Shown: positions 1,918-11,724 of the stretch, in pieces
Position numbering within the stretch: the stretch's first letter is position 1
How the letters are laid out: each line of letters starts with the position of its first letter
Source of the DNA: a virus
Lineage: Duplodnaviria > Caudoviricetes
Strand: one strand, 5' to 3'
Length of the DNA stretch: 55,211 nucleotides
IMG/VR virus record: IMGVR_UViG_3300036859_000142
Span: 1 to 55,211 of that record
Program-made: the position numbers and the translations under genes
Notes under the pieces: model-generated
The model's input: the letters and a program-made list of their open reading frames with translations, nothing else
Database searches by the model: none
What the model was told of the DNA's origin: nothing

Positions 1918-2358
1918 ATGGCTGGAAACGAAAACAGCGGGCGCCGCCCGAATCCCACGTCATTGACGGTGCTCCGCGGGAACCCAAGTAAGAAAAGGCT
2001 TAATGAAAATGAACCTGTCCCACCACCTGGAGAGATTCAGAAACCGGCCGAGTTGTCGGCGGCTGGCGAGCAGGTGTGGGATGAGCTCGCGCCGATCTGC
2101 TTGGCCATGGGCACGCTGACGACGGCTGACGTGCGGCCGTTTACCACGATGTGCGAATTACAGGCGACGTTCACCGCGGCGGCCAGGGGGAAGGGCAGCG
2201 CGGCCTTTGACGCGAAGCTGGAGCGCGAGACGGCGAACGCGCTGCGGCCGTATTACGCGCTGTTCGGCTTGGAACCGGTTTCGAGGGCGCGGATTCAGGT
2301 GCCAAAAACTGGCCAGCCGGCGCCACCGGCCAGTAAGTGGGCAGGGGCGCTGAAGTGA
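1918..2358 (+). CDS. terS: Terminase small subunit (P27 family)
   Basis: GRRPNPT...LRGNPSKKRLN...P..LS......W...FGL.P.SR.RI motifs. Confidence 0.92.
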   Translation: MAGNENSGRRPNPTSLTVLRGNPSKKRLNENEPVPPPGEIQKPAELSAAGEQVWDELAPICLAMGTLTTADVRPFTTMCELQATFTAAARGKGSAAFDAKLERETANALRPYYALFGLEPVSRARIQVPKTGQPAPPASKWAGALK

Positions 2359-3254
2359 CGCAGGAAACGGCGGCGGCCAGGGCGATTCGGTTAGTCAACC
2401 AGTTGACGCATACGAAGGGGCCGTTTGCCGATCAGCCGTTCAACCTTCGGCCGTGGCAAGTCCAGATTCTGAAGAAGTTGTTCAAGACGAAGCGCGACGG
2501 CTTGCGGCAATACCGGACGTGCCTGCTGATGCTGCCTCGGAAGAACGGGAAGACGGAACTCGCGGCCGCGCTAGCGATTTACTTTCTGCTGTTCGACAAC
2601 GAGATCGGGGCTGAGGTGTATTCAGCGGCAGCGGATAAGGACCAGGCGGCGCTCGTGTTCAACGTGGCTGCGCAGATGATCAGGAACGATGCCGAACTCC
2701 TGGCGCAGTGTGAACTGATCGATTCGCAGAAACGGATCGTGAACCGGCGCAGCGGGAGTTTCTATCGGGCGATTTCCGCTGAGGCCTACTCCAAGCACGG
2801 GTTCAACGCGTCGGCGGTGATTTATGACGAGCTGCACGCGGCACAGAGCCGGGAACTCTGGGATGTGCTGACGACGTCACAGGGCGCGCGGAAACACCCG
2901 TTGACACTAGCGATCAGCACCGCCGGGTACGACCGCCATTCGATCCTCTGGGAACTCTACCAGCACGCGAAGAAGGTATTAGAGAATCCCGCGCTCGATC
3001 CGACGTTCCTTGCAATTCTGTATGAAGCACCGATCGACGCCGACTGGACGGATGAACGCGTCTGGAAGAAAGCGAATCCGGCGCTCGGCGATTTCCGCAG
3101 CTTGGAAGAAATGCGTGTCGCTGCTGCGCGAGCTCAGGAAATCCCAGCGCAAGAGAACGTCTTCCGCAGACTCTATTTGAACCAATGGACGGAGCAGGCG
3201 GCACGGTGGATCCAGATGCCGACCTGGGATGCCTGCTGTGTGGTGAACGCATGA
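2355..3254 (+). CDS. terL: Terminase large subunit, N-terminal ATPase part (separate ORF)
   Basis: LRPWQ motif, Walker A PRKNGKT, Walker B VIYDELH, ISTAG motif III; GTGA overlap with terS. Confidence 0.95.
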   Translation: MTQETAAARAIRLVNQLTHTKGPFADQPFNLRPWQVQILKKLFKTKRDGLRQYRTCLLMLPRKNGKTELAAALAIYFLLFDNEIGAEVYSAAADKDQAALVFNVAAQMIRNDAELLAQCELIDSQKRIVNRRSGSFYRAISAEAYSKHGFNASAVIYDELHAAQSRELWDVLTTSQGARKHPLTLAISTAGYDRHSILWELYQHAKKVLENPALDPTFLAILYEAPIDADWTDERVWKKANPALGDFRSLEEMRVAAARAQEIPAQENVFRRLYLNQWTEQAARWIQMPTWDACCVVNA

Positions 3255-3910
3255 CTCGCGCTGAATACCGCGCGAGCCTTCGTGGCCGACGGATGTATGT
3301 CGGACTGGACCTCAGCTCCACGAAGGATCTGACGGCTGCCGTCGGAACGTTTCCGGATGACGACGGCTTCGATGTGCTCCCCGCGTTCTTTTGTCCGAAG
3401 GATACGATCAAGGAAAGGTCGACACGGGATCGTGTGCCGTACGAGCAATGGATGCGCGATGGTCAGCTGATAGTCACGCCTGGAAACGTCGTGGATTACG
3501 AGGCGGTCCGCAAGCAGTTGCTAGATTGGGCCGACGAATTCGATCTACGCGAGATTGCCTACGATCCGTGGAACGCCACCGATCTCGTGACACGTCTTCA
3601 GGCGCAAGACGGCTTCGCCTGCGTGCCGATGCGCCAGGGGTTTGCCTCGCTGTCCTCGCCGACGAAATCACTCGAAAAGGCGGTCTTGTCCCGGACGTTG
3701 CGGCACGATGGCAATCCGATTTTGCGGTGGAACATGTCGAACGTGTCGGTCGAAAGCGATCCGTCAGGGAATATCAAAGTCTCCAAGAAAGTCTCGACGG
3801 AGCGGATCGACGGCGCGGCGGCATTGGTGATGGCAGTGGACGTCATGGAACGGAACAACAGCCAGAAGACGCCGAATTATGAAGTCCGGTTCTTTGGAGG
3901 GGTGCGGTAA
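3251..3910 (+). CDS. terL: Terminase large subunit, C-terminal nuclease part (separate ORF)
   Basis: YVGLDLSSTKDLTA, IAYDPWNA, RIDGAAAL RNase H-like motifs; ATGA overlap with the ATPase ORF. Confidence 0.93.
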   Translation: MTRAEYRASLRGRRMYVGLDLSSTKDLTAAVGTFPDDDGFDVLPAFFCPKDTIKERSTRDRVPYEQWMRDGQLIVTPGNVVDYEAVRKQLLDWADEFDLREIAYDPWNATDLVTRLQAQDGFACVPMRQGFASLSSPTKSLEKAVLSRTLRHDGNPILRWNMSNVSVESDPSGNIKVSKKVSTERIDGAAALVMAVDVMERNNSQKTPNYEVRFFGGVR

Positions 3911-4098
3911 TGGCCAAGCCAGGCCGTCCTCCGTTGGACGCCGCCGCGACAGCTCCGTCGGCTAATGTGCAATTACGTATTGCCGCCTCCGACTACGATC
4001 GGGCTCAAAAACTCGCCAAAGAATGCCGAGAGTCCGTCTCGGACACGATTCGTCGCGGCCTCAAGCGACTCCTAGACGAGCGCGGCAATAGCATTTAG
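3910..4098 (+). CDS. Small ribbon-helix-helix DNA-binding protein
   Basis: GRPP...VQLRI....YD.....A.....SVSDTIRRGL pattern. Confidence 0.6.
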   Translation: MAKPGRPPLDAAATAPSANVQLRIAASDYDRAQKLAKECRESVSDTIRRGLKRLLDERGNSI

Positions 4099-4225
4099 TA
4101 ACAGAAAATAGGTACCTCGTCGGTCACTCCGTAGCCTCTAAGCTACGGTAAAGCACTCCTTATTTCCGTCTGCTGGTCAAGCCGAGCCACTGCGCTGGAA
4201 TCGGCGTCTCTCCAAAGCGTTCGAC

Positions 4226-7200
4226 GTGGCTGGGGAGCAATTTCCTGCCCGATCTGTCGAGGAAGCGCTCGTCGCCAAGTACCTCGAAGTTGAAATCAAG
4301 CATCTCGAACGGCGGGAGACACGCGTCCCCGCTGTTCGCATGGGCGCCTTTCTCACGGCTGTCAACGATGTTCTGCGGAAGTGGTCAGTTGACGACGTTC
4401 GGAATCTGAATTCCCGCGGGGAAGAGACGCCGCCCAGCTACGACATCATTCAGTTGAATTCCACGCAGAGCGCAGACTTCCTCGTCGATGGCATGCGGTT
4501 TCTGCATACGGCGGATGTTGCCAACGGTCAGCGCGCCAGCCTCCGAGTGCAAGCAGCCTGGTATGGCTTGGACGTCACGGCCTATGGGTTGCGCACTACT
4601 GGCACGGCAGAAAAGCTCCTCGGCGAAATCACCCACCGGTCCAAGGAAATCAATTTTCTGAAGGGCGAGGCGTTTTCCCTCTCAGGGGAATTCCTGCCGA
4701 AGACTGACGAGACATTCGCGGATTTATTCCTTGAGCAGAAGAATGCCGCGGCGCTTGACCGCGTAGTGAAATTGGTGAACGCCCGCGGGAAGACACTCGA
4801 GAACCGTGGCGTGCTGTTAATGGGACCGCCTGGCACTGGTAAAACGCTGGCGGCGCGGATCGTCAGAAACGAAGCCAAGGCCACGTTTATCTGGGTCAGT
4901 TCGCGAGACTTCCATTACAGCGGCAGCTTCGGCGGTTTCACGCAGGCGTTTGACATCGCGCGCGAATGCGCCCCATCCGTCGTCGTCTTTGAGGACATCG
5001 ATAACTGGTTGTACGACACGACGGTCGACCTGATTAAGACCGAGATGGACGGCGTGTCGAAGAGCGCCGGCGTTGTCACGGTCATGACAACGAACTACCC
5101 AGAACTCCTACCTGCCGCGCTAATTGATCGCCCTGGTCGTTTCCATGACGTGTTGAAGTTTGACCTGCCGAACGAGGCTGCGAGAAGCCAGATGCTGCAT
5201 CGCTGGCTCCCCAGCCTCACCACGGCTGATGTTATCCGAGCAGTCAAGGCGACCGCCGACTATAGCGGCGCGCACGTCCGAGAATTAGCCAGGTTTGCGA
5301 AGATCATTGCGGAGCAAGACGCGCTACCGATCGATCAGGCGCTCACCGTTGCGCTCACCAAACTCGCCGAACAACGCGACCTGATCACGACGACGCAGCG
5401 GACAGGGTCTCGTTATCGGATGGCGCCGGAGCTGCTGCAGAAGGCTGGCGCCACGACGGCGCGCATTCCGCAGCGCGCCTACGCACTGCTGCGTGTCAAG
5501 TCGATCGATGGAACACGACGCGTGTTCTCAGGCATGGCGACGACACCAGAACCAGATCGGCACGGGGACATCGTCGATCCGGCCGGTGTGAAGTTCCACA
5601 ACCCGCTGCCGCTACTGTTCCATCACGATCCCAAACACCCCGTTGGTACGGTGACCTTCCATCCGGCGACCACCGCCGGGATCGCCTTTGAGGCCACCTT
5701 GCCGGTCATCGAGGAGCCCGGCATCTTGAAAGATCGGGTCGATGAGGCCTGGCAGTCGATTAAGGCCGGCCTCATCACGGGCGTCTCGATTGGGTATCGC
5801 GTGGTCGACAACGCGATCCAAGTTCTCAAGGATGGCTCCGCAAAGCTGCTCAAGACGGAGGTCTTCGAATTAAGCCTCGTCACGATTCCAGCCAACGCGC
5901 AAGCCACCATCCTCAACGTCAAATCGCTTGATCTGGCCGCGTCCGGCCTTCACTCGCCCGGCGTTACGGGCCTCCCCGTTGTCCGAGCGCGCAAGGACGC
6001 GCCAGCTATGACTATCACCGAACAAATTACGCAATGGTCGAATACGCGTGCGCCGAAAGCCGCGCGGATGACCGAGTTGATGGCCAAGGCCGCTGACACC
6101 GGCGTGACCCTCGACGAGACACAGGCCGAGGAATACGACGGCCTCGAGCAGGAGATCAAGAGCATCGATGTGCATCTCACGCGGCTGCGTTCGGCTGAAC
6201 AAGCCAACCTCGCGGCCGCGACGCCGATCACGCCTATCACGACACAGACCAAGGCGTCCGAGATGCGTTCCGGCATCTCACAGGTACATGTCAAGCCGAA
6301 TGTGCCCAAGGGCACGGCGTTCACCCGCTACGTGATGGCGAAGATCGTCGGCAAGAACAGCCTGTCCGATGCGATTCGCTACGTCGAACAGAACCAGCAG
6401 TGGATGGATCAGACGCCGGAAGTCGCGCTGGCCCTGAAGGCCGTTGTGAATCCTGGCACGATCGCGGAACCTGCATGGGCGGCGCCGCTCGCGGTGGCCC
6501 GGCCGATGGTCGACGAATTCCTCGACATCCTCCGACCGGAAACGCTGATCGGCAAGATTCCAGGCTTGCGGAATGTGCCGTTCAACATCTCCATTCCGGT
6601 GCAGACCGGTGGTGGGACGTACAACTGGGTCGGAGAAGGCGCCCCGAAGCCGGTGGGCCAGCTCCAGTTCGCGAGCGTGACGCTGGGGATCGCGAAGGCC
6701 GCGGGGATCATCGTGATCTCGGAAGAGCTCGCGAAGATCTCCAGTCCGTCGGCGGAAGGCGTCGTACGCAACGACATGATCCGCGGGATGGCGCAGTACC
6801 TCGATCTGCAGTTCATCGATCCGACGATCGCGGCGGTGGCGAATGTCTCGCCGGCCTCGATCACCAACCTCGCGAACGGCTTCGCCACGGCCGGCACCTC
6901 GGGCGACAACGCGCGCACCGACATCAAGAAAGCGATTACCTTGATGACGGCGGCGAACTATCCGATCTCGGAAGTCGTGCTGATCATGTCTGAGGCGAAC
7001 GCGTTCGCACTGTCAACCGCGCTCAGCACTAACGGCGTGCGTGTTAATCCGGATCTGACGGCGAAGGGCGGCAACATTCTCGGCGTGCCCGTCGTGACGA
7101 GTCAGGCGGCTGGGCAAGTTGTCGCACTCGTGCATGCGCAGTCGATTCTGTTTGCTGATGATGGTGGTGTGAACATCGATGTGAGCCGTGAGGCGAGTGT

Positions 7201-7357
7201 CGAGATGAACACCGCACCGACGTCACCGGCGACGGCATCGAGTGTCTATATCTCGCTGTGGCAACTGAACTTGATAGGTTTACGCGCAGAGCGCTTCATA
7301 AATTGGAAACGCGCGCGGACTACGGCCGTAGTGTATACGACCGCAACTTATGTGTAA
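4226..7357 (+). CDS. AAA+ ATPase - HK97-type prohead protease - major capsid protein fusion (1043 aa)
   Basis: Walker A GPPGTGKT (~4823-4846), Walker B VVFEDID, TTNYPE...DRPGRFH; protease FSGMATTPEPDRHGDIV...LLFHHD...GVSIGY...FELSLVTIPAN; capsid from MTITEQ (ATG 6008) with YNWVGEGAPKP and SLWQLNLIGLRAERFINW. Confidence 0.93.
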   Translation: MAGEQFPARSVEEALVAKYLEVEIKHLERRETRVPAVRMGAFLTAVNDVLRKWSVDDVRNLNSRGEETPPSYDIIQLNSTQSADFLVDGMRFLHTADVANGQRASLRVQAAWYGLDVTAYGLRTTGTAEKLLGEITHRSKEINFLKGEAFSLSGEFLPKTDETFADLFLEQKNAAALDRVVKLVNARGKTLENRGVLLMGPPGTGKTLAARIVRNEAKATFIWVSSRDFHYSGSFGGFTQAFDIARECAPSVVVFEDIDNWLYDTTVDLIKTEMDGVSKSAGVVTVMTTNYPELLPAALIDRPGRFHDVLKFDLPNEAARSQMLHRWLPSLTTADVIRAVKATADYSGAHVRELARFAKIIAEQDALPIDQALTVALTKLAEQRDLITTTQRTGSRYRMAPELLQKAGATTARIPQRAYALLRVKSIDGTRRVFSGMATTPEPDRHGDIVDPAGVKFHNPLPLLFHHDPKHPVGTVTFHPATTAGIAFEATLPVIEEPGILKDRVDEAWQSIKAGLITGVSIGYRVVDNAIQVLKDGSAKLLKTEVFELSLVTIPANAQATILNVKSLDLAASGLHSPGVTGLPVVRARKDAPAMTITEQITQWSNTRAPKAARMTELMAKAADTGVTLDETQAEEYDGLEQEIKSIDVHLTRLRSAEQANLAAATPITPITTQTKASEMRSGISQVHVKPNVPKGTAFTRYVMAKIVGKNSLSDAIRYVEQNQQWMDQTPEVALALKAVVNPGTIAEPAWAAPLAVARPMVDEFLDILRPETLIGKIPGLRNVPFNISIPVQTGGGTYNWVGEGAPKPVGQLQFASVTLGIAKAAGIIVISEELAKISSPSAEGVVRNDMIRGMAQYLDLQFIDPTIAAVANVSPASITNLANGFATAGTSGDNARTDIKKAITLMTAANYPISEVVLIMSEANAFALSTALSTNGVRVNPDLTAKGGNILGVPVVTSQAAGQVVALVHAQSILFADDGGVNIDVSREASVEMNTAPTSPATASSVYISLWQLNLIGLRAERFINWKRARTTAVVYTTATYV

Positions 7358-7385
7358 AAGGTTGTAAAATAAAGACTTACACAAC

Positions 7386-7440
7386 GTGCGCGTCTAGGCT
7401 TAGCGGCCGAAATACCTGCCCTGATCAGGCTGACGCGCAC
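7386..7440 (+). ncRNA. Structured three-way-junction RNA element (copy 1)
   Basis: GTGCGCGTC/GACGCGCAC 9-bp stem enclosing TA-GGCT(TAGC)GGCC-GAAA and a CCTG..CAGG hairpin; same architecture at 15348. Confidence 0.55.
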
Positions 7441-7480: not shown

Positions 7481-8161
7481 ATGGCAGCGTGCGTGATCTG
7501 CGGCGATGTGACACCGCTACCGAAAAAGCGAGGACAAGCGCCGAAGTATTGCAGTCAGAAGTGCCGACTAGATGGGCGTGGCTTAGCGAGACAAACACTT
7601 AGAGCAACGACGCCTGACACCGTCCGAGGACGGAATCGACTCAAGCAAGCGAAGTGGCGTGCGAACAAGCCTGAGAGTTTCCGAGCGTATCGCAAAAAGC
7701 ACTACGCGGAGAATCGCCAACTGATTCTTCAGCAACGCAGAGAGAGACTGGATCTTGGGAAAGAGCGCGCGATGGCGCGACAGAGATATGCCAAGAACCG
7801 TGAGCATGTCAGGGCACGTGAGAATGCCAGGCGAGAGCGCGCTGACATCAAAGAGTCGGCTCGGCGCCGCACGGCGTTGTGGCGCATTCAGAATCCAGAA
7901 CGCTCCAAACAAAACAACTTCCGATCTGGGGCTGAGTGGCGTGCTCGAATTAAAAATCTGTTCATTGAAACTATCAGCCGCACGGTGGTCTTTGTTCGCG
8001 ACAAGGGTCAATGCGGCATCTGCTCAACGCCAGTCGATCCCGCCAGCCCGTGGGAAGTCGACCACATCATTCCGATCTCCAAAGGCGGGCCGCACTCGTA
8101 CGCCAACGTTCAACTCTCTCATCGGAAGTGCAATCGCCCTAAGAGCGCACGCCTGCTCTAG
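7481..8161 (+). CDS. Free-standing HNH (homing) endonuclease
   Basis: CVIC...YCSQKC N-terminus; RDKGQCGIC...EVDHIIPISKGGPHSYANVQLSHRKCN C-terminus; GGAGG SD. Confidence 0.9.
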   Translation: MAACVICGDVTPLPKKRGQAPKYCSQKCRLDGRGLARQTLRATTPDTVRGRNRLKQAKWRANKPESFRAYRKKHYAENRQLILQQRRERLDLGKERAMARQRYAKNREHVRARENARRERADIKESARRRTALWRIQNPERSKQNNFRSGAEWRARIKNLFIETISRTVVFVRDKGQCGICSTPVDPASPWEVDHIIPISKGGPHSYANVQLSHRKCNRPKSARLL

Positions 8162-8371: not shown

Positions 8372-9760
8372 ATGTCCTTCCTCGATCGCTTTACCGGCAC
8401 CACGCTCAGCCTGCAGACGAAGGCACAGCAGACGTTGCAGCCGTTGAATTCTCGCGGGTCATGGTGGCCGGTGATCCGTGAGAGTTTTTCAGGCGCGTGG
8501 CAGCGCAATGTGGACATCAACGTCGACACGGTTCTCACGTTCCACGCCGTGTATGCGTGCATCTCTTTGATCGCTGGCGATATTTCCAAGATGTGCCTGC
8601 GGTTGGTGGCCGAGGACGAGAACGGCATTTGGGAACCCGTTGAGAGCGCGGCGTTCTCTCCGGTGCTGCGCAAGCCGAATCGCTACCAGAACCGGATCAA
8701 GTTCTTTGAATGGTGGATGACCTCCAAACTGATCAACGGGAATACGTATGCGTTGAAGCAACGGGATCAGCGGGGCGTGGTGACGGCGCTCTACATCCTC
8801 GATCCGATGCGCGTCACGCCGCTCGTGGCTCCGGATGGTGCGGTGTTCTATCAGTTGAAGCGGGACGATCTGTCCGGGATCCCGGATGACGACCTGATCA
8901 AGAACACCGTTCCTGCGAAGGAAATCATTCACGACATCATGTGCGCGCTCTATCACCCGTTGATCGGGGTCTCGCCCATTCACGCGTGCGGGCTCGCGGC
9001 CTTGCAAGGGCTGAAGATTCAGAACAATTCGTACAAGTTTTTCGCGAATGGATCCGTGCCTGGGATGGTCGTGACCGTGCCAGGGCAGATCAAACAGGAA
9101 CAAGCGGACGCCATCAAAGCCGCATGGGATCTGAATTTCGGCGGCGACAACTTCGGCAAGGTCGCGGTGCTCAGCGATGGCATGACGGCCGAAGGGTTGA
9201 AGATCAGCAACGTGGACGCGCAGTTGATCGAGCAGTTGAAGTGGACGGCCGAAGTCGTGTGTTCGGTGTTCCACGTGCCCCCCTACATGATTGGCGTCGG
9301 GCCTCCCCCGAACTACAACAACATTGAAGCCCTGAACCAGCAGTACTACCAGCAGGCGCTGCAGCATCCCGTGGAATCGATCGAACTGTGCCTCGATGAA
9401 GGGTTGGAACTGCCGAAGCCTTACGGCACGGAATTCGATCTCGATGATCTGTTGCGCATGGACACGGCCGCGATGATCGATTCGGAAGGCAAAGCCGTCG
9501 GCGCCGGGATCAAGGCGCCGAACGAATCGCGCAAACGTATGAACCTGAAGCCGAAGCAGGGCGGGGATACGCCGTACCTGCAGCAGCAGAACTATTCCCT
9601 GGCCGCGCTAGATCGGCGCGATCAAACCCCTGCGCCGGCGACGAATGTGCAGCCAGTGCCACCGCTGGATGACGAACCTCAGGCGGATCTGGCGGCGAGT
9701 TTCGGCGAAGCCCTCCACCGCAAGATGATCGAGCGCCAGCTCTATGCCGCCTGGCGCTGA
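8372..9760 (+). CDS. Portal protein, HK97 family
   Basis: AVYACISLIAGDISK, KPNRYQ, LINGNTY, IGVSPI, FFANGSVPG, VCSVFHVPP, PNESRKRMNL motifs. Confidence 0.95.
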   Translation: MSFLDRFTGTTLSLQTKAQQTLQPLNSRGSWWPVIRESFSGAWQRNVDINVDTVLTFHAVYACISLIAGDISKMCLRLVAEDENGIWEPVESAAFSPVLRKPNRYQNRIKFFEWWMTSKLINGNTYALKQRDQRGVVTALYILDPMRVTPLVAPDGAVFYQLKRDDLSGIPDDDLIKNTVPAKEIIHDIMCALYHPLIGVSPIHACGLAALQGLKIQNNSYKFFANGSVPGMVVTVPGQIKQEQADAIKAAWDLNFGGDNFGKVAVLSDGMTAEGLKISNVDAQLIEQLKWTAEVVCSVFHVPPYMIGVGPPPNYNNIEALNQQYYQQALQHPVESIELCLDEGLELPKPYGTEFDLDDLLRMDTAAMIDSEGKAVGAGIKAPNESRKRMNLKPKQGGDTPYLQQQNYSLAALDRRDQTPAPATNVQPVPPLDDEPQADLAASFGEALHRKMIERQLYAAWR

Positions 9761-10748
9761 GGCGATGGCGGAGACGGTCGTGCTGGCGTTTGAGACGGCG
9801 ATTCGGCCAGTGCTCGCGAAGGTCACGAGCCTCGCTGAACAGGTGATGGGTCTTGAGGCACGGTGGGCGGATCTCAATGCGTTGCGGGACCGCGTAGCGG
9901 TGATGGAAATGAAAGAGATGCCGCTCGTGAGGCCGGAGCGCGGTGAACAAGGGAAACCCGGCGAGCCAGGGAAAGACGGCGAGAGCATCAAGGGGGATCC
10001 CGGTAAAGACGGCACCAGCGTCACGCTTGAGGATGTGGCCCCGTTGATCGTCGCGGAAGTTGCCAAGGCGGTGAGCGCGCTGCCGCCTCCCATAAACGGG
10101 AAAGATGGCGAGAGTGTGAAAGGCGAACAGGGCGATCCGGGCCTTCCAGGAAAGGACGGATCCAGCGTCACGGTGAACGACGTGGCCCCGCTCATCACTT
10201 CGGAAGTGGCGAAGGCAGTCCACGCGTTGCCACGCGCGATCGCTGGGAAAGACGGCCTCGGTCTCGTGAGCGCACTCGTGGATCGTGACGGGCATCTGGT
10301 GATGACGATGTCAGATGGGTCTACCAAGAATGTCGGGACAGTGGTCGGCCGCGATGTCGATCGCGCGGACGTCGTGCGCGTTATTGCTGAAGAAGTGGCG
10401 AAATTTCCCAAACCGCTCGACGGTAAGGACGGATTTGGATTTGACGACTTCGACTTCGAGTACGACGAGCACGGCCGTCTGTCGCTGAAGTTTGCGCGCG
10501 GGGATCAGATCAAGCGTGGGCGCGTTCCTGGCCACGTGGATCGCGGCGTCTACAAACAGGGCGACGCATATTTACGCGGCGATGAAGTGTCGTTCGGCGG
10601 CGGATTGTATATCGCACAAAAGGACATCGAGAGCGAAAAGCCTGGGGATGGATCAGGCGGGTGGCGGTTGGCGGTGAAAGCGGGCCGCGATGGCAGAGAT
10701 GCACGGGCGACACAATCGAATGCCCTGCCGATCATGAGAACGAAGTAA
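9744..10748 (+). CDS. Collagen-like (Gly-X-Y) head-associated protein
   Basis: GEQGKPGEPGKDG repeats, duplicated SVT..DVAPLI..EVAKAV.ALP unit, C-terminal RGVY...GDEVSFGG...W.LAVK.GRDGRD. Confidence 0.85.
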   Translation: MPPGAEAMAETVVLAFETAIRPVLAKVTSLAEQVMGLEARWADLNALRDRVAVMEMKEMPLVRPERGEQGKPGEPGKDGESIKGDPGKDGTSVTLEDVAPLIVAEVAKAVSALPPPINGKDGESVKGEQGDPGLPGKDGSSVTVNDVAPLITSEVAKAVHALPRAIAGKDGLGLVSALVDRDGHLVMTMSDGSTKNVGTVVGRDVDRADVVRVIAEEVAKFPKPLDGKDGFGFDDFDFEYDEHGRLSLKFARGDQIKRGRVPGHVDRGVYKQGDAYLRGDEVSFGGGLYIAQKDIESEKPGDGSGGWRLAVKAGRDGRDARATQSNALPIMRTK

Positions 10749-11080
10749 TGGAAGACCTCGTGACGCTGGAGCAAGCCAAGAAGCATCTGCGGTTGAGTGG
10801 TTCGCATGAAGACGACGATCTACGGATGAAGCTCACGCAGGCGCAAGACATCATCATCGACTATTTGGACGAGAGTCGAAGTACGGAGTGGGCTGCTGAA
10901 ATGGACGCGTGGACCGAAGAGACCGTCCCCGAACGCGTGCGCGGCGCGATTCTCCTGCAGTGTGCGGAGTTGGTCAGGTTCAGGGGCGATGACGTCGACG
11001 AGCCGAAACGCGAACGGGGATCGTTATCGCCGGCGATCGTCGCGTATCTCAATCGCACGCGGATGCCGGTGATTGCATGA
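10748..11080 (+). CDS. Head-tail connector (HK97 gp6-like)
   Basis: LVTLEQAKKHLRL...DDDL...A...IIDYL...VRGAILL motif. Confidence 0.88.
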   Translation: MEDLVTLEQAKKHLRLSGSHEDDDLRMKLTQAQDIIIDYLDESRSTEWAAEMDAWTEETVPERVRGAILLQCAELVRFRGDDVDEPKRERGSLSPAIVAYLNRTRMPVIA

Positions 11081-11724
11081 CACAGAACCCGCCACGCCTC
11101 GTGACGACCGCCACGGTACCAAAGCTGTGGCTCGGCGAGACGTGTGTGATTCTTGGCGGTGGGCCAAGCCTTAATCAGCAGGACGTTGACTACGTGCGTG
11201 GGAAAGCGAAAGTGATTGCGATCAAAGAGGCTGGCGCATGTAGCCTGCCAGGGTTCCCACCGTTGGCGCCGTGGGCGGACGCGTTATTTGCTTGTGATGG
11301 GAAGTATTGGGCCTATGAGAAAGGCGCTCCTGATTTCAAAGGGTTGAAGTACGCACTGGAGCCACAAACGACAGCATGGCCTGGTGTTCAGGTCTTGCGA
11401 AACACAGGCCACGACGGGCTTGAGCTGGATCCGAGTGGACTGCGCACCGGGCATAACTCGGGGTATCAGGCGCTCGGGTTGGCGTTTCATCTCGGCGTCA
11501 AGAAAATCATTCTGCTCGGCTTCGACATGTGGGCCGGTCCTGACCGTGCGAATTGGTTCGGTCCTCATCCTGGACACGTCGCCAGTCCGTATCCGATCTT
11601 TTTGATGCGCTTCGCGTCGATCGCGGAGCCGCTAAAAGCCGCTGGCGTCGAGGTGTTAAACGCATCTCGCTTTACGGTGTTGCAGGCGTTTCCACGCGTC
11701 ACGCTTCAGGACGTGCTGCCATGA
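11077..11724 (+). CDS. Maf/MptE-like (DUF115-type) glycosyltransferase-like protein
   Basis: CVILGGGPSL...VIAI...ALFACD...NSGYQAL.LA.HLG.KKIILLGFDM...VLNAS. Confidence 0.7.
   Translation: MTQNPPRLVTTATVPKLWLGETCVILGGGPSLNQQDVDYVRGKAKVIAIKEAGACSLPGFPPLAPWADALFACDGKYWAYEKGAPDFKGLKYALEPQTTAWPGVQVLRNTGHDGLELDPSGLRTGHNSGYQALGLAFHLGVKKIILLGFDMWAGPDRANWFGPHPGHVASPYPIFLMRFASIAEPLKAAGVEVLNASRFTVLQAFPRVTLQDVLP

Follow-up and report, generated by a model that had tools for sequence, protein, structure and literature searches.

Assembly and maturation of the tailed-phage shell are regarded as independent of ATP, save for host chaperonins and the DNA-packaging motor. Why, then, should a tailed phage encode an AAA ATPase in one chain with a prohead protease and a major capsid protein? 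The question is raised by the virus record IMGVR_UViG_3300036859_000142 (Duplodnaviria; Caudoviricetes), which was analysed over its entire 55,211 bp and is referred to here as the window. It is a complete viral record with direct terminal repeats and a completeness estimate of 100, and its sequence is matched by contigs of two soil-metagenome runs. The gene in question, at 4226-7357 on the plus strand like all of its features described below, is a single open reading frame (ORF) of 1043 codons with a GTG start and zero internal stops. Such a tie between an ATPase and a head protease points to an energy-using step or to a passenger in head biogenesis; we know of no model phage that shows a step or passenger of that kind.

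An ATPase joined in frame to head proteins

A first-pass annotation, made from the sequence alone, had read this frame as an AAA module followed by an HK97-type maturation protease at about 5470-5930 and a capsid protein. The ORF list, the translation, Pfam and PHROG 617 all bear out the three parts in one stop-free frame of 1043 amino acids, and every motif quoted was located: GPPGTGKT at residue 200 (nucleotide 4823), VVFEDID at 253, TTNYPE at 288, DRPGRFH at 301 and YSGAHVREL at 346. The Pfam matches lie above the curated cut-offs throughout. They comprise AAA (residues 196-313, E 3.1e-20, 73.4 bits versus a cut-off of 21.2), Peptidase_S78 (residues 461-563, E 1.5e-9, 38.6 bits versus 21) and Phage_capsid (PF05065; residues 787-990, E 9.9e-16, 58.4 bits versus 24.2). 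The 626-position profile PHROG 617, which represents protease-capsid fusions, spans residues 416-1041 with its positions 10-624 (E 2.9e-129), and the protease range first proposed agrees with the extents of both the PHROG and the Pfam match.

An alpha/beta N-domain (residues 1-185, 4226..4780), to which Pfam gave no match, directly precedes the ATPase domain (residues 186-398, 4781..5419). The latter carries Walker A (G200-T207, 4823-4846), Walker B (E256-D257, 4991-4996) and, likewise within 4781..5419, the sensor-1 residue N290 and the arginine fingers R302 and R305. The S78 prohead protease domain (residues 416-580, 5471..5965), supported by the Pfam and PHROG matches, contains H467, S521 and E548, each of which is invariant in 192 of 192 aligned protease domains (window numbering); we take the His and the Ser to be the S78 catalytic pair. 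The capsid part begins with a delta-domain-like, scaffold-like region (residues 595-700, 6008..6325) that lies inside the PHROG 617 match and before the Pfam capsid match, and whose role we presume by analogy with the HK97 delta domain. It ends with the HK97-fold major capsid protein (residues 701-1043, with the stop codon 6326..7357), as matched by Phage_capsid, PHROG 617 and PHROG 10.

The fusion is not confined to the window. Two further IMG/VR contigs, L002 and L003, are likewise open in a single frame (of 1113 and 1107 codons, respectively, from stop to stop) with an ATPase part 81-83% identical to that of the window, which provides independent biological support. The order ATPase, protease, capsid is also found in 24 other database proteins, and the junction sequence GSRYRM is conserved. 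An exhaustive HMMER search with residues 1-398 returned 397 representative clusters at E<=1e-30. The best 150 of these 397 clusters and the proteins of a second search were classified with our own hidden Markov models, giving 213 relatives besides the window's protein, all of them metagenomic. An S78 protease was found in front of the module in 168 of the 213 and behind it in 27 (the latter including the 24 with a capsid domain); no protease was detected in the remaining 18, most of which start or end inside the module, i.e. are fragments. The protease is thus covalently tied to the module in 195 of 213 relatives, in both domain orders, and uncultured phages of well over a hundred groups share the ATPase-head protease linkage. 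The search for this domain architecture that the first-pass annotation had proposed therefore succeeded, and its concern that relatives might never link the AAA module to head genes is contradicted, since nearly all of them do.

Protease-first fusions sit where a prohead protease gene would normally be found. In four of four annotated loci of this kind (L005, L007, L008 and L009), the first large gene after the fusion encodes the capsid protein, and in L009 a portal and a minor head protein are encoded upstream of the protease-ATPase gene. Two of these loci have two capsid-protein paralogues after that gene (L007 9296-12932 and L009 8122-10449). A Pfam scan of 43 protease-first proteins gave AAA in 43 of 43 and Peptidase_S78 in 24 of 43 at E<=1e-3. 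Matches in metagenome-assembled genomes range from Pirellulales to Saccharibacteria and an archaeon, with Melioribacteraceae among them. We also noted four proteins (P0020, P0044, P0139 and P0142) whose N-domain and ATPase matches are about 310-440 residues apart; Intein_splicing was matched by Pfam in two of the 43 scanned proteins and PF14890 is recorded on P0044, which makes an intein near the P-loop probable for some of the cassettes.

From a phylogenetic perspective, the two orders have interchanged repeatedly. A FastTree phylogeny of 198 modules, which is unrooted, implies at least five changes of domain order, at least three of which are forced by well-supported branches. The window lies inside a clade of 23 ATPase-first proteins (support 99) that is nested among protease-first ones in this tree.

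Parts of the architecture have precedents. Protease-capsid fusions of the PHROG 617 type correspond to residues 416-1041 of the window's protein, but those genes begin at window residue 415 and lack the ATPase. In print, an S78 protease-capsid fusion is described, in the portion of the source used here, for the thaumarchaeal proviruses NCAV2-Pro1 and NitIsl-Pro1 (PMC6563490), and protease-scaffold fusions are likewise documented in the excerpted text of bioRxiv 10.1101/2023.05.21.541620. The protease-first relatives end in an acidic region and an RGRVD-type tail, which the ATPase-free P0333 also has, and they differ from protease-scaffold fusions in having the cassette inserted between protease and tail. 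By analogy, this tail may bind the capsid. Full-text literature searches, which covered main texts, found no publication on an AAA-prohead protease/capsid fusion, which fits the earlier statement that no characterised example was known. Nor did a search of 50,697 GenBank phage records yield a close counterpart: 80 matched, none covering >=80% of the module. Among the 30 records listed, relatives in cultured phages match the ATPase domain only, at 27-34% identity. The Bcs1-type relative of Pseudomonas phage Arace01 (L100) lies outside the head module; there, at 2281-6017, the gene of a 492-amino-acid AAA ATPase, whose Walker B reads ED and which has an RPGR motif, adjoins a second AAA gene and a metalloprotease gene, so that a cultured phage, too, has an ATPase and a protease as neighbours. 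The fusion is a new architecture that combines known kinds of parts.

An ATPase of the Bcs1/YjoB branch

What kind of ATPase has been joined to the head proteins? In a sequence search of the PDB only residues 192-367 found matches, the best being the D2 domains of p97/Cdc48 (E about 2e-34), and the module therefore belongs to the classical AAA clade (PF00004). In 137 aligned modules G200, G203, G205, K206, T207, N290, R302 and R305 are invariant, and the second region of homology is intact with its two arginines. Position 230 of pore loop 1 is Tyr, His or Trp in 110 of the 137, and G233 is kept in 130. Walker B reads ED and not DE, with E256 present in 136 and D257 in all 137 modules. An alignment to p97 revealed that about 12 residues, which carry pore loop 2 in p97, are absent.

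The structural comparison leads away from p97. An AlphaFold2 model of residues 1-398 computed from 20 sequences (predicted local distance difference test, pLDDT, 90.8; predicted template modelling score 0.85) places the N-domain and the ATPase in a Bcs1/YjoB-like arrangement. Foldseek with this model ranked YjoB highest (E 1.2e-18) and Bcs1 next (3.4e-16 and below); chains of the proteasome, p97, FtsH and spastin came after them. Over model residues 1-382, YjoB aligns with 347 residues and Bcs1 with 330. Among the matches listed these two are the only solved structures that also align over the N-domain, most of the other 50 listed structures aligning over about 212-260 residues, i.e. the ATPase alone. 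The root-mean-square deviation of 7.5-8.5 A in the whole-module alignments with YjoB and Bcs1 indicates that the two domains are oriented differently.

Both features that set the module apart have been described for these two proteins. According to the portion of the YjoB report used here (PMC9565160), YjoB and Bcs1 "exceptionally" have ED in Walker B and are nevertheless active, and their N-domains share a fold. The same portion describes a chamber enclosed by the N-domain ring and the AAA ring, which is needed for the anti-aggregation activity of YjoB, and the translocation of the folded Rieske protein by Bcs1. On the strength of the ED Walker B and of the predicted alignment over the N-domain, the assignment of the module to the Bcs1/YjoB branch is well supported. 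The proposal of the first-pass annotation that the ATPase is FtsH/Cdc48/PAN-like is not supported: Walker B reads ED, the model has a Bcs1/YjoB-like N-domain and the pore-loop-2 stretch is absent.

Within this branch the module differs from both known members. It shares 16-19% identity with Bacillus subtilis YjoB (PDB 7W42/7W46; PMC9565160). YjoB, as described in the same excerpt of PMC9565160, stands alone and is restricted to Bacilli, whereas the phage module, known here from its sequence, is fused to a head protease. Mitochondrial Bcs1 is a heptameric translocase with an N-terminal transmembrane anchor and works in a membrane context; the phage module has head genes for its context and lacks both the anchor and a match to BCS1_N. 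The highest Kyte-Doolittle mean over 19 residues is 0.36 within the first 60 residues and 1.05 overall, giving no sign of an N-terminal transmembrane anchor, and in this respect the module resembles the soluble YjoB rather than Bcs1. Phage-encoded Bcs1-type ATPases have also been reported from jumbo phages. In the part of their paper used here, Iyer et al. 2021 (PMC7824862) proposed that these BCS1 orthologues bind and translocate folded proteins packaged into the head; they are described there as separate genes, with no protease/capsid fusion. The fusion provides the first direct genomic link of that proposal to head morphogenesis, and the Bcs1/YjoB branch, which is poorly understood, gains a context with obvious candidate clients.

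The module appears to be a working enzyme. In comparison with L002 and L003 the ratio of nonsynonymous to synonymous substitution rates (dN/dS) is 0.05-0.07 for the ATPase domain, the range for the module being 0.05-0.10. With its catalytic and inter-subunit residues intact and under strong purifying selection, the ATPase is apparently active, and the invariant arginine fingers suggest that it forms a ring.

A mobile cassette and its carriers

The protease-capsid part of the window has its closest relatives elsewhere. Residues 399-1043 are most similar (70-78% identity) to two-part proteins of about 625-640 amino acids without an ATPase, the best three-part relative reaching only 69%. In total, 105 two-part relatives of 600-700 amino acids share 56-78% identity with the window's protein. 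None of the best 80 viral loci for residues 399-1043 (53-75% identity) has the ATPase or the N-domain, even though 56 of the 80 have more than 1.5 kb of upstream sequence. Divergence also differs strongly between the parts. Between the window and L002/L003, the nonsynonymous divergence (dN) is 0.10-0.16 for the cassette and 0.56-0.79 for protease and capsid, and the TerL proteins are only about 30% identical. The contig L020, at 72% identity and with the same gene order, has an unrelated ORF of 364 amino acids (3748-4842) in the slot after TerL that the cassette (4226-5419) occupies in the window. The slot after the capsid gene is variable as well, with a SIS-domain gene in L020 (7002-7721) and an HNH endonuclease gene in the window (7481-8161). 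We considered the 364-amino-acid ORF as a relative of the ATPase and rejected it (BLASTP E 0.4, no Pfam match).

Protease-first carriers tell a similar story. P0333 (545 amino acids, no ATPase) and P0047 (1022 amino acids) agree in their protease, zinc ribbon, GRVLS motif, acidic stretch and RGRVD end, and P0047 therefore looks like a P0333-type protein into which the cassette has been inserted. Four shorter proteins sharing the C-terminal extension of P0047 were found. In 166 C-terminal extensions a GRVLS-like motif (K-x-G-R-V-L-S-x-x-N-E) occurs 60 times and a G-R-V-D-type end 32 times. The acidic stretch follows the motif, as in P0047 (893-1022) and P0333, and leads to the RGRVD-type end. 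P0088 and P0117, which are ATPase-first and have no capsid domain, end in a similar tail. Cys-rich, zinc-ribbon-like stretches are seen in several linkers and extensions, 21 of the 166 extensions having at least two CxxC.

Judged by these sequence comparisons, the ATPase module is a mobile, optional and shuffled cassette. Its carrier is presumably directed to the procapsid interior, and the cassette is built into it in frame. For this direction we rely on analogy: the N-terminus of an HK97-type capsid protein faces inward, as would anything fused to it, and the C-terminal tail of HK97 gp4 targets the capsid, as the RGRVD-type tail may do.

A proposed chaperone in the procapsid and its rivals

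What the sequences show is the identity of each domain, the preservation of the catalytic residues, a covalent linkage that recurs and a distribution that is optional and shuffled; encapsidation, ring formation, a client, timing and an action on the scaffold are what we infer. We give even chances to a Bcs1/YjoB-type chaperone that is tethered in the procapsid, takes part in building the head and is afterwards removed by its own protease. Its carrier would be a protease-capsid fusion in phages like that of the window and, in others, a prohead protease with a scaffold-like tail at its C-terminus. Most capsid protein would be made alone from the internal ATG at 6008, and a minority of full-length chains would co-assemble with it and so bring ATPase and protease inside the shell. 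There the ATPase would form a chambered ring like that of YjoB and Bcs1. It would spend ATP on holding or releasing head proteins in their folded state (the capsid or delta domain, the scaffold tail or the protease) during assembly or maturation, and would not thread unfolded chains. Finally, the tethered protease would remove the ATPase along with the scaffold parts. The full picture, an ATP-driven, self-destroying assembly chaperone built into the head proteins whose chambered ring holds or releases folded capsid, scaffold or protease domains, is offered more tentatively. If true, tailed-phage head morphogenesis would have its first intrinsic ATPase besides the terminase, and the proposal that Bcs1 proteins of phages act on folded proteins of the head would gain direct genomic support. 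The fusion would also show how nature brings a large enzyme into an HK97-type shell by fusion, which is relevant to capsid and encapsulin engineering.

The mechanism includes a free capsid protein, and the first-pass annotation had already noted an SD sequence and ATG of its own for the capsid part at 6008. The SD-like AAGGA (5993-5997) and the ATG of M595 (6008-6010), together 5993..6010, are a likely internal capsid start. Met occupies position 595 in 104 of the 105 two-part proteins and in 25 of the 27 with three parts, and an SD-like 4-mer precedes the site in 58 of 76 loci versus 10.0% of in-frame background positions; the conserved Met and the SD-like motif support the start noted earlier. 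The 76 loci are those placed by a looser pattern among 83 (seven missed), earlier patterns having placed 23 of 83. As the loci are interrelated and the 4-mer overlaps a conserved Lys codon, the enrichment is only moderate evidence, and we regard a free capsid product from 6008 as likely. Volume points the same way. Residues 1-594 amount to 65 kDa, or about 79 nm3 per chain, and if all 415 subunits of a shell carried them in addition to the delta regions, about 38,000 of 44,600 nm3 (~86%) would be filled, assuming a T=7 shell whose interior is a sphere 22 nm in radius. It is therefore probable that only a minority of the chains in the shell are full-length, and free capsid protein from 6008 is the more plausible main product.

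Several observations weigh against the procapsid chaperone or against steps it depends on. The likeness of the N-domain rests on whole-module alignments with the large deviation of 7.5-8.5 A, Pfam BCS1_N found no match to the 1043-amino-acid protein, and the N-domain folded alone without an alignment gave a pLDDT of only 35.5. At the internal capsid start the SD-like AAGG may reflect protein constraint on the Lys codon that it overlaps, and L002 and L003 lack it; the T number, and hence the volume argument, is an assumption. Since the conserved N-terminal motif lies outside the reach of any canonical start, it is not assured that the phage expresses the ATPase part. Finally, this capsid type can do without the cassette, which its closest protease-capsid relatives lack; a core assembly role is therefore unlikely, an accessory or a cargo role being equally possible.

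The last point leads to an alternative that we consider unlikely. The fusion could serve only to bring the ATPase into the head; freed by the protease, the ATPase would be ejected with the DNA and act early in the host, for instance by remodelling a host or defence protein. In its favour, the cassette behaves like an accessory gene: it is optional and shuffled, absent from the closest capsid relatives, and placed in a slot where L020 has its unrelated ORF. It is 81-83% identical to that of L002 and L003, where protease and capsid differ strongly and TerL is about 30% identical, and it is always tied, in either order, to a presumably procapsid-directed carrier. Speaking against cargo, the cassette of protease-first phages is embedded in what is apparently the sole prohead protease gene of the head module, and no conserved cleavage sites flanking it were identified. 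Moreover, HK97-type proteases usually destroy what is tethered inside, and we know of no precedent for an ejected AAA+ ring protein.

Quite unlikely, in our judgement, is the mechanism favoured by the first-pass annotation, in which a hexameric threading unfoldase would pass scaffold or delta domains on to the protease it is fused to, as a phage analogue of Lon and FtsH. Like these enzymes, the window's protein has ATPase and protease in one chain, in the order N-domain, AAA, protease; it is of the classical clade with an intact second region of homology, and an aromatic or His residue at position 230 (110 of 137 modules) and G233 (130 of 137) are largely retained. The proteases of Lon and FtsH, however, belong to S16 or M41, whereas that of the window is S78 and its ATPase comes from the Bcs1/YjoB branch, where the ED Walker B and the N-domain place it among chamber chaperones or translocases of folded proteins. 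The p97 pore-loop-2 stretch of about 12 residues is missing. While the domain order of Lon and FtsH is fixed, that of the module relatives is mostly reversed, with the protease in front in 168 of 195 protease-bearing proteins, and the linkers vary from 41 to 526 residues; both facts misfit a stacked geometry and disfavour a fixed machine of the Lon/FtsH type. In addition, close capsid relatives mature without such an ATPase.

It is very unlikely that the ATPase part is untranslated or a recent relic in this phage, with only a protease-capsid product from M399 and a capsid product from M595 being made. The suspicion arises from the 5' end. The conserved N-terminal motif (EPLRWNRRLSKAFD) is encoded at 4184..4225, in frame and upstream of the first ATG, GTG or TTG, and it follows a variable leader in all 20 AAA-first relatives compared. 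From the stop at 4139-4141 to GTG 4226 there is no ATG, GTG or TTG, and the 5' end of the gene is therefore uncertain. No SD sequence is apparent before 4226 or 4190, and the gene caller behind the database copy P0152 places the start at M39. An internal start for a protease-capsid product would be available at the ATG of M399 (5420..5422), which is Met in 20 of 27 three-part proteins and has no clear SD sequence upstream. A relic would hardly keep 398 codons without a stop and with every family-invariant residue, or a dN/dS of 0.05-0.10 relative to its relatives. The 14 codons upstream of the GTG (4184-4225) evolve as coding sequence too, with a dN/dS of 0.02-0.06 versus L002/L003. Two possible starts remain, GTG 4226 and CTG 4190; the latter, the only start of genetic code table 11 in the motif stretch, would give 4190..7357 and 1055 amino acids. 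The usual protease start has been lost: 68 of the 105 two-part relatives begin at the column of P415, as M, V or L, and this is the column where ATPase-free protease-capsid genes begin. In the window residue 415 is Pro (CCG, 5468..5470), and its protease must therefore be translated from further upstream, which ties it to upstream translation. A 7-bp hairpin (4129-4148, z -2.2) precedes the motif codons.

That the fusion is an assembly chimera, or that a sequencing error erased a stop between two genes, is scarcely credible: the record is indeed a metagenome assembly whose TerL lies in two frames, but a second assembly at depth 37 is identical, 24 proteins on other contigs share the architecture, the junction sequence GSRYRM is conserved, and the two TerL ORFs overlap cleanly by ATGA where one domain ends and the next begins. 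The contig of the second assembler (32,841 nt, depth 37.3) covers 2300-7400 with zero differences and no gap, and thereby also the stretch around 5400-5480 for which the first-pass annotation had wanted support. As this contig may come from the source sample, it checks the assembly and not the biology. The second soil run (X2) consists of short low-depth pieces, and among those listed none bridges 5380-5480 or the TerL junction.

Neighbouring genes of the window

The gene order around the fusion is TerS, TerL (two ORFs), an RHH-like ORF of 62 amino acids, the three-part gene, HNH, an ORF of 64 amino acids and portal. The portal gene was found downstream at 8372-9760, after the HNH gene at 7481-8161. 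TerL consists of an ATPase part (2337-3254) and a nuclease part with its own ATG (3251-3910), which overlap by ATGA, and the split is identical in the second assembly. In L003 TerL is undivided, has 589 amino acids and is only about 30% identical to that of the window. Following the portal gene, the ORF at 9744-10748 has weak collagen-repeat and portal-C-terminal/fibre-like matches, and collagen repeats were likewise matched in its L020 counterpart. For the ORF at 11077-11724 there is a match to a PHROG annotated as sialyltransferase and a weak MptE-like one.

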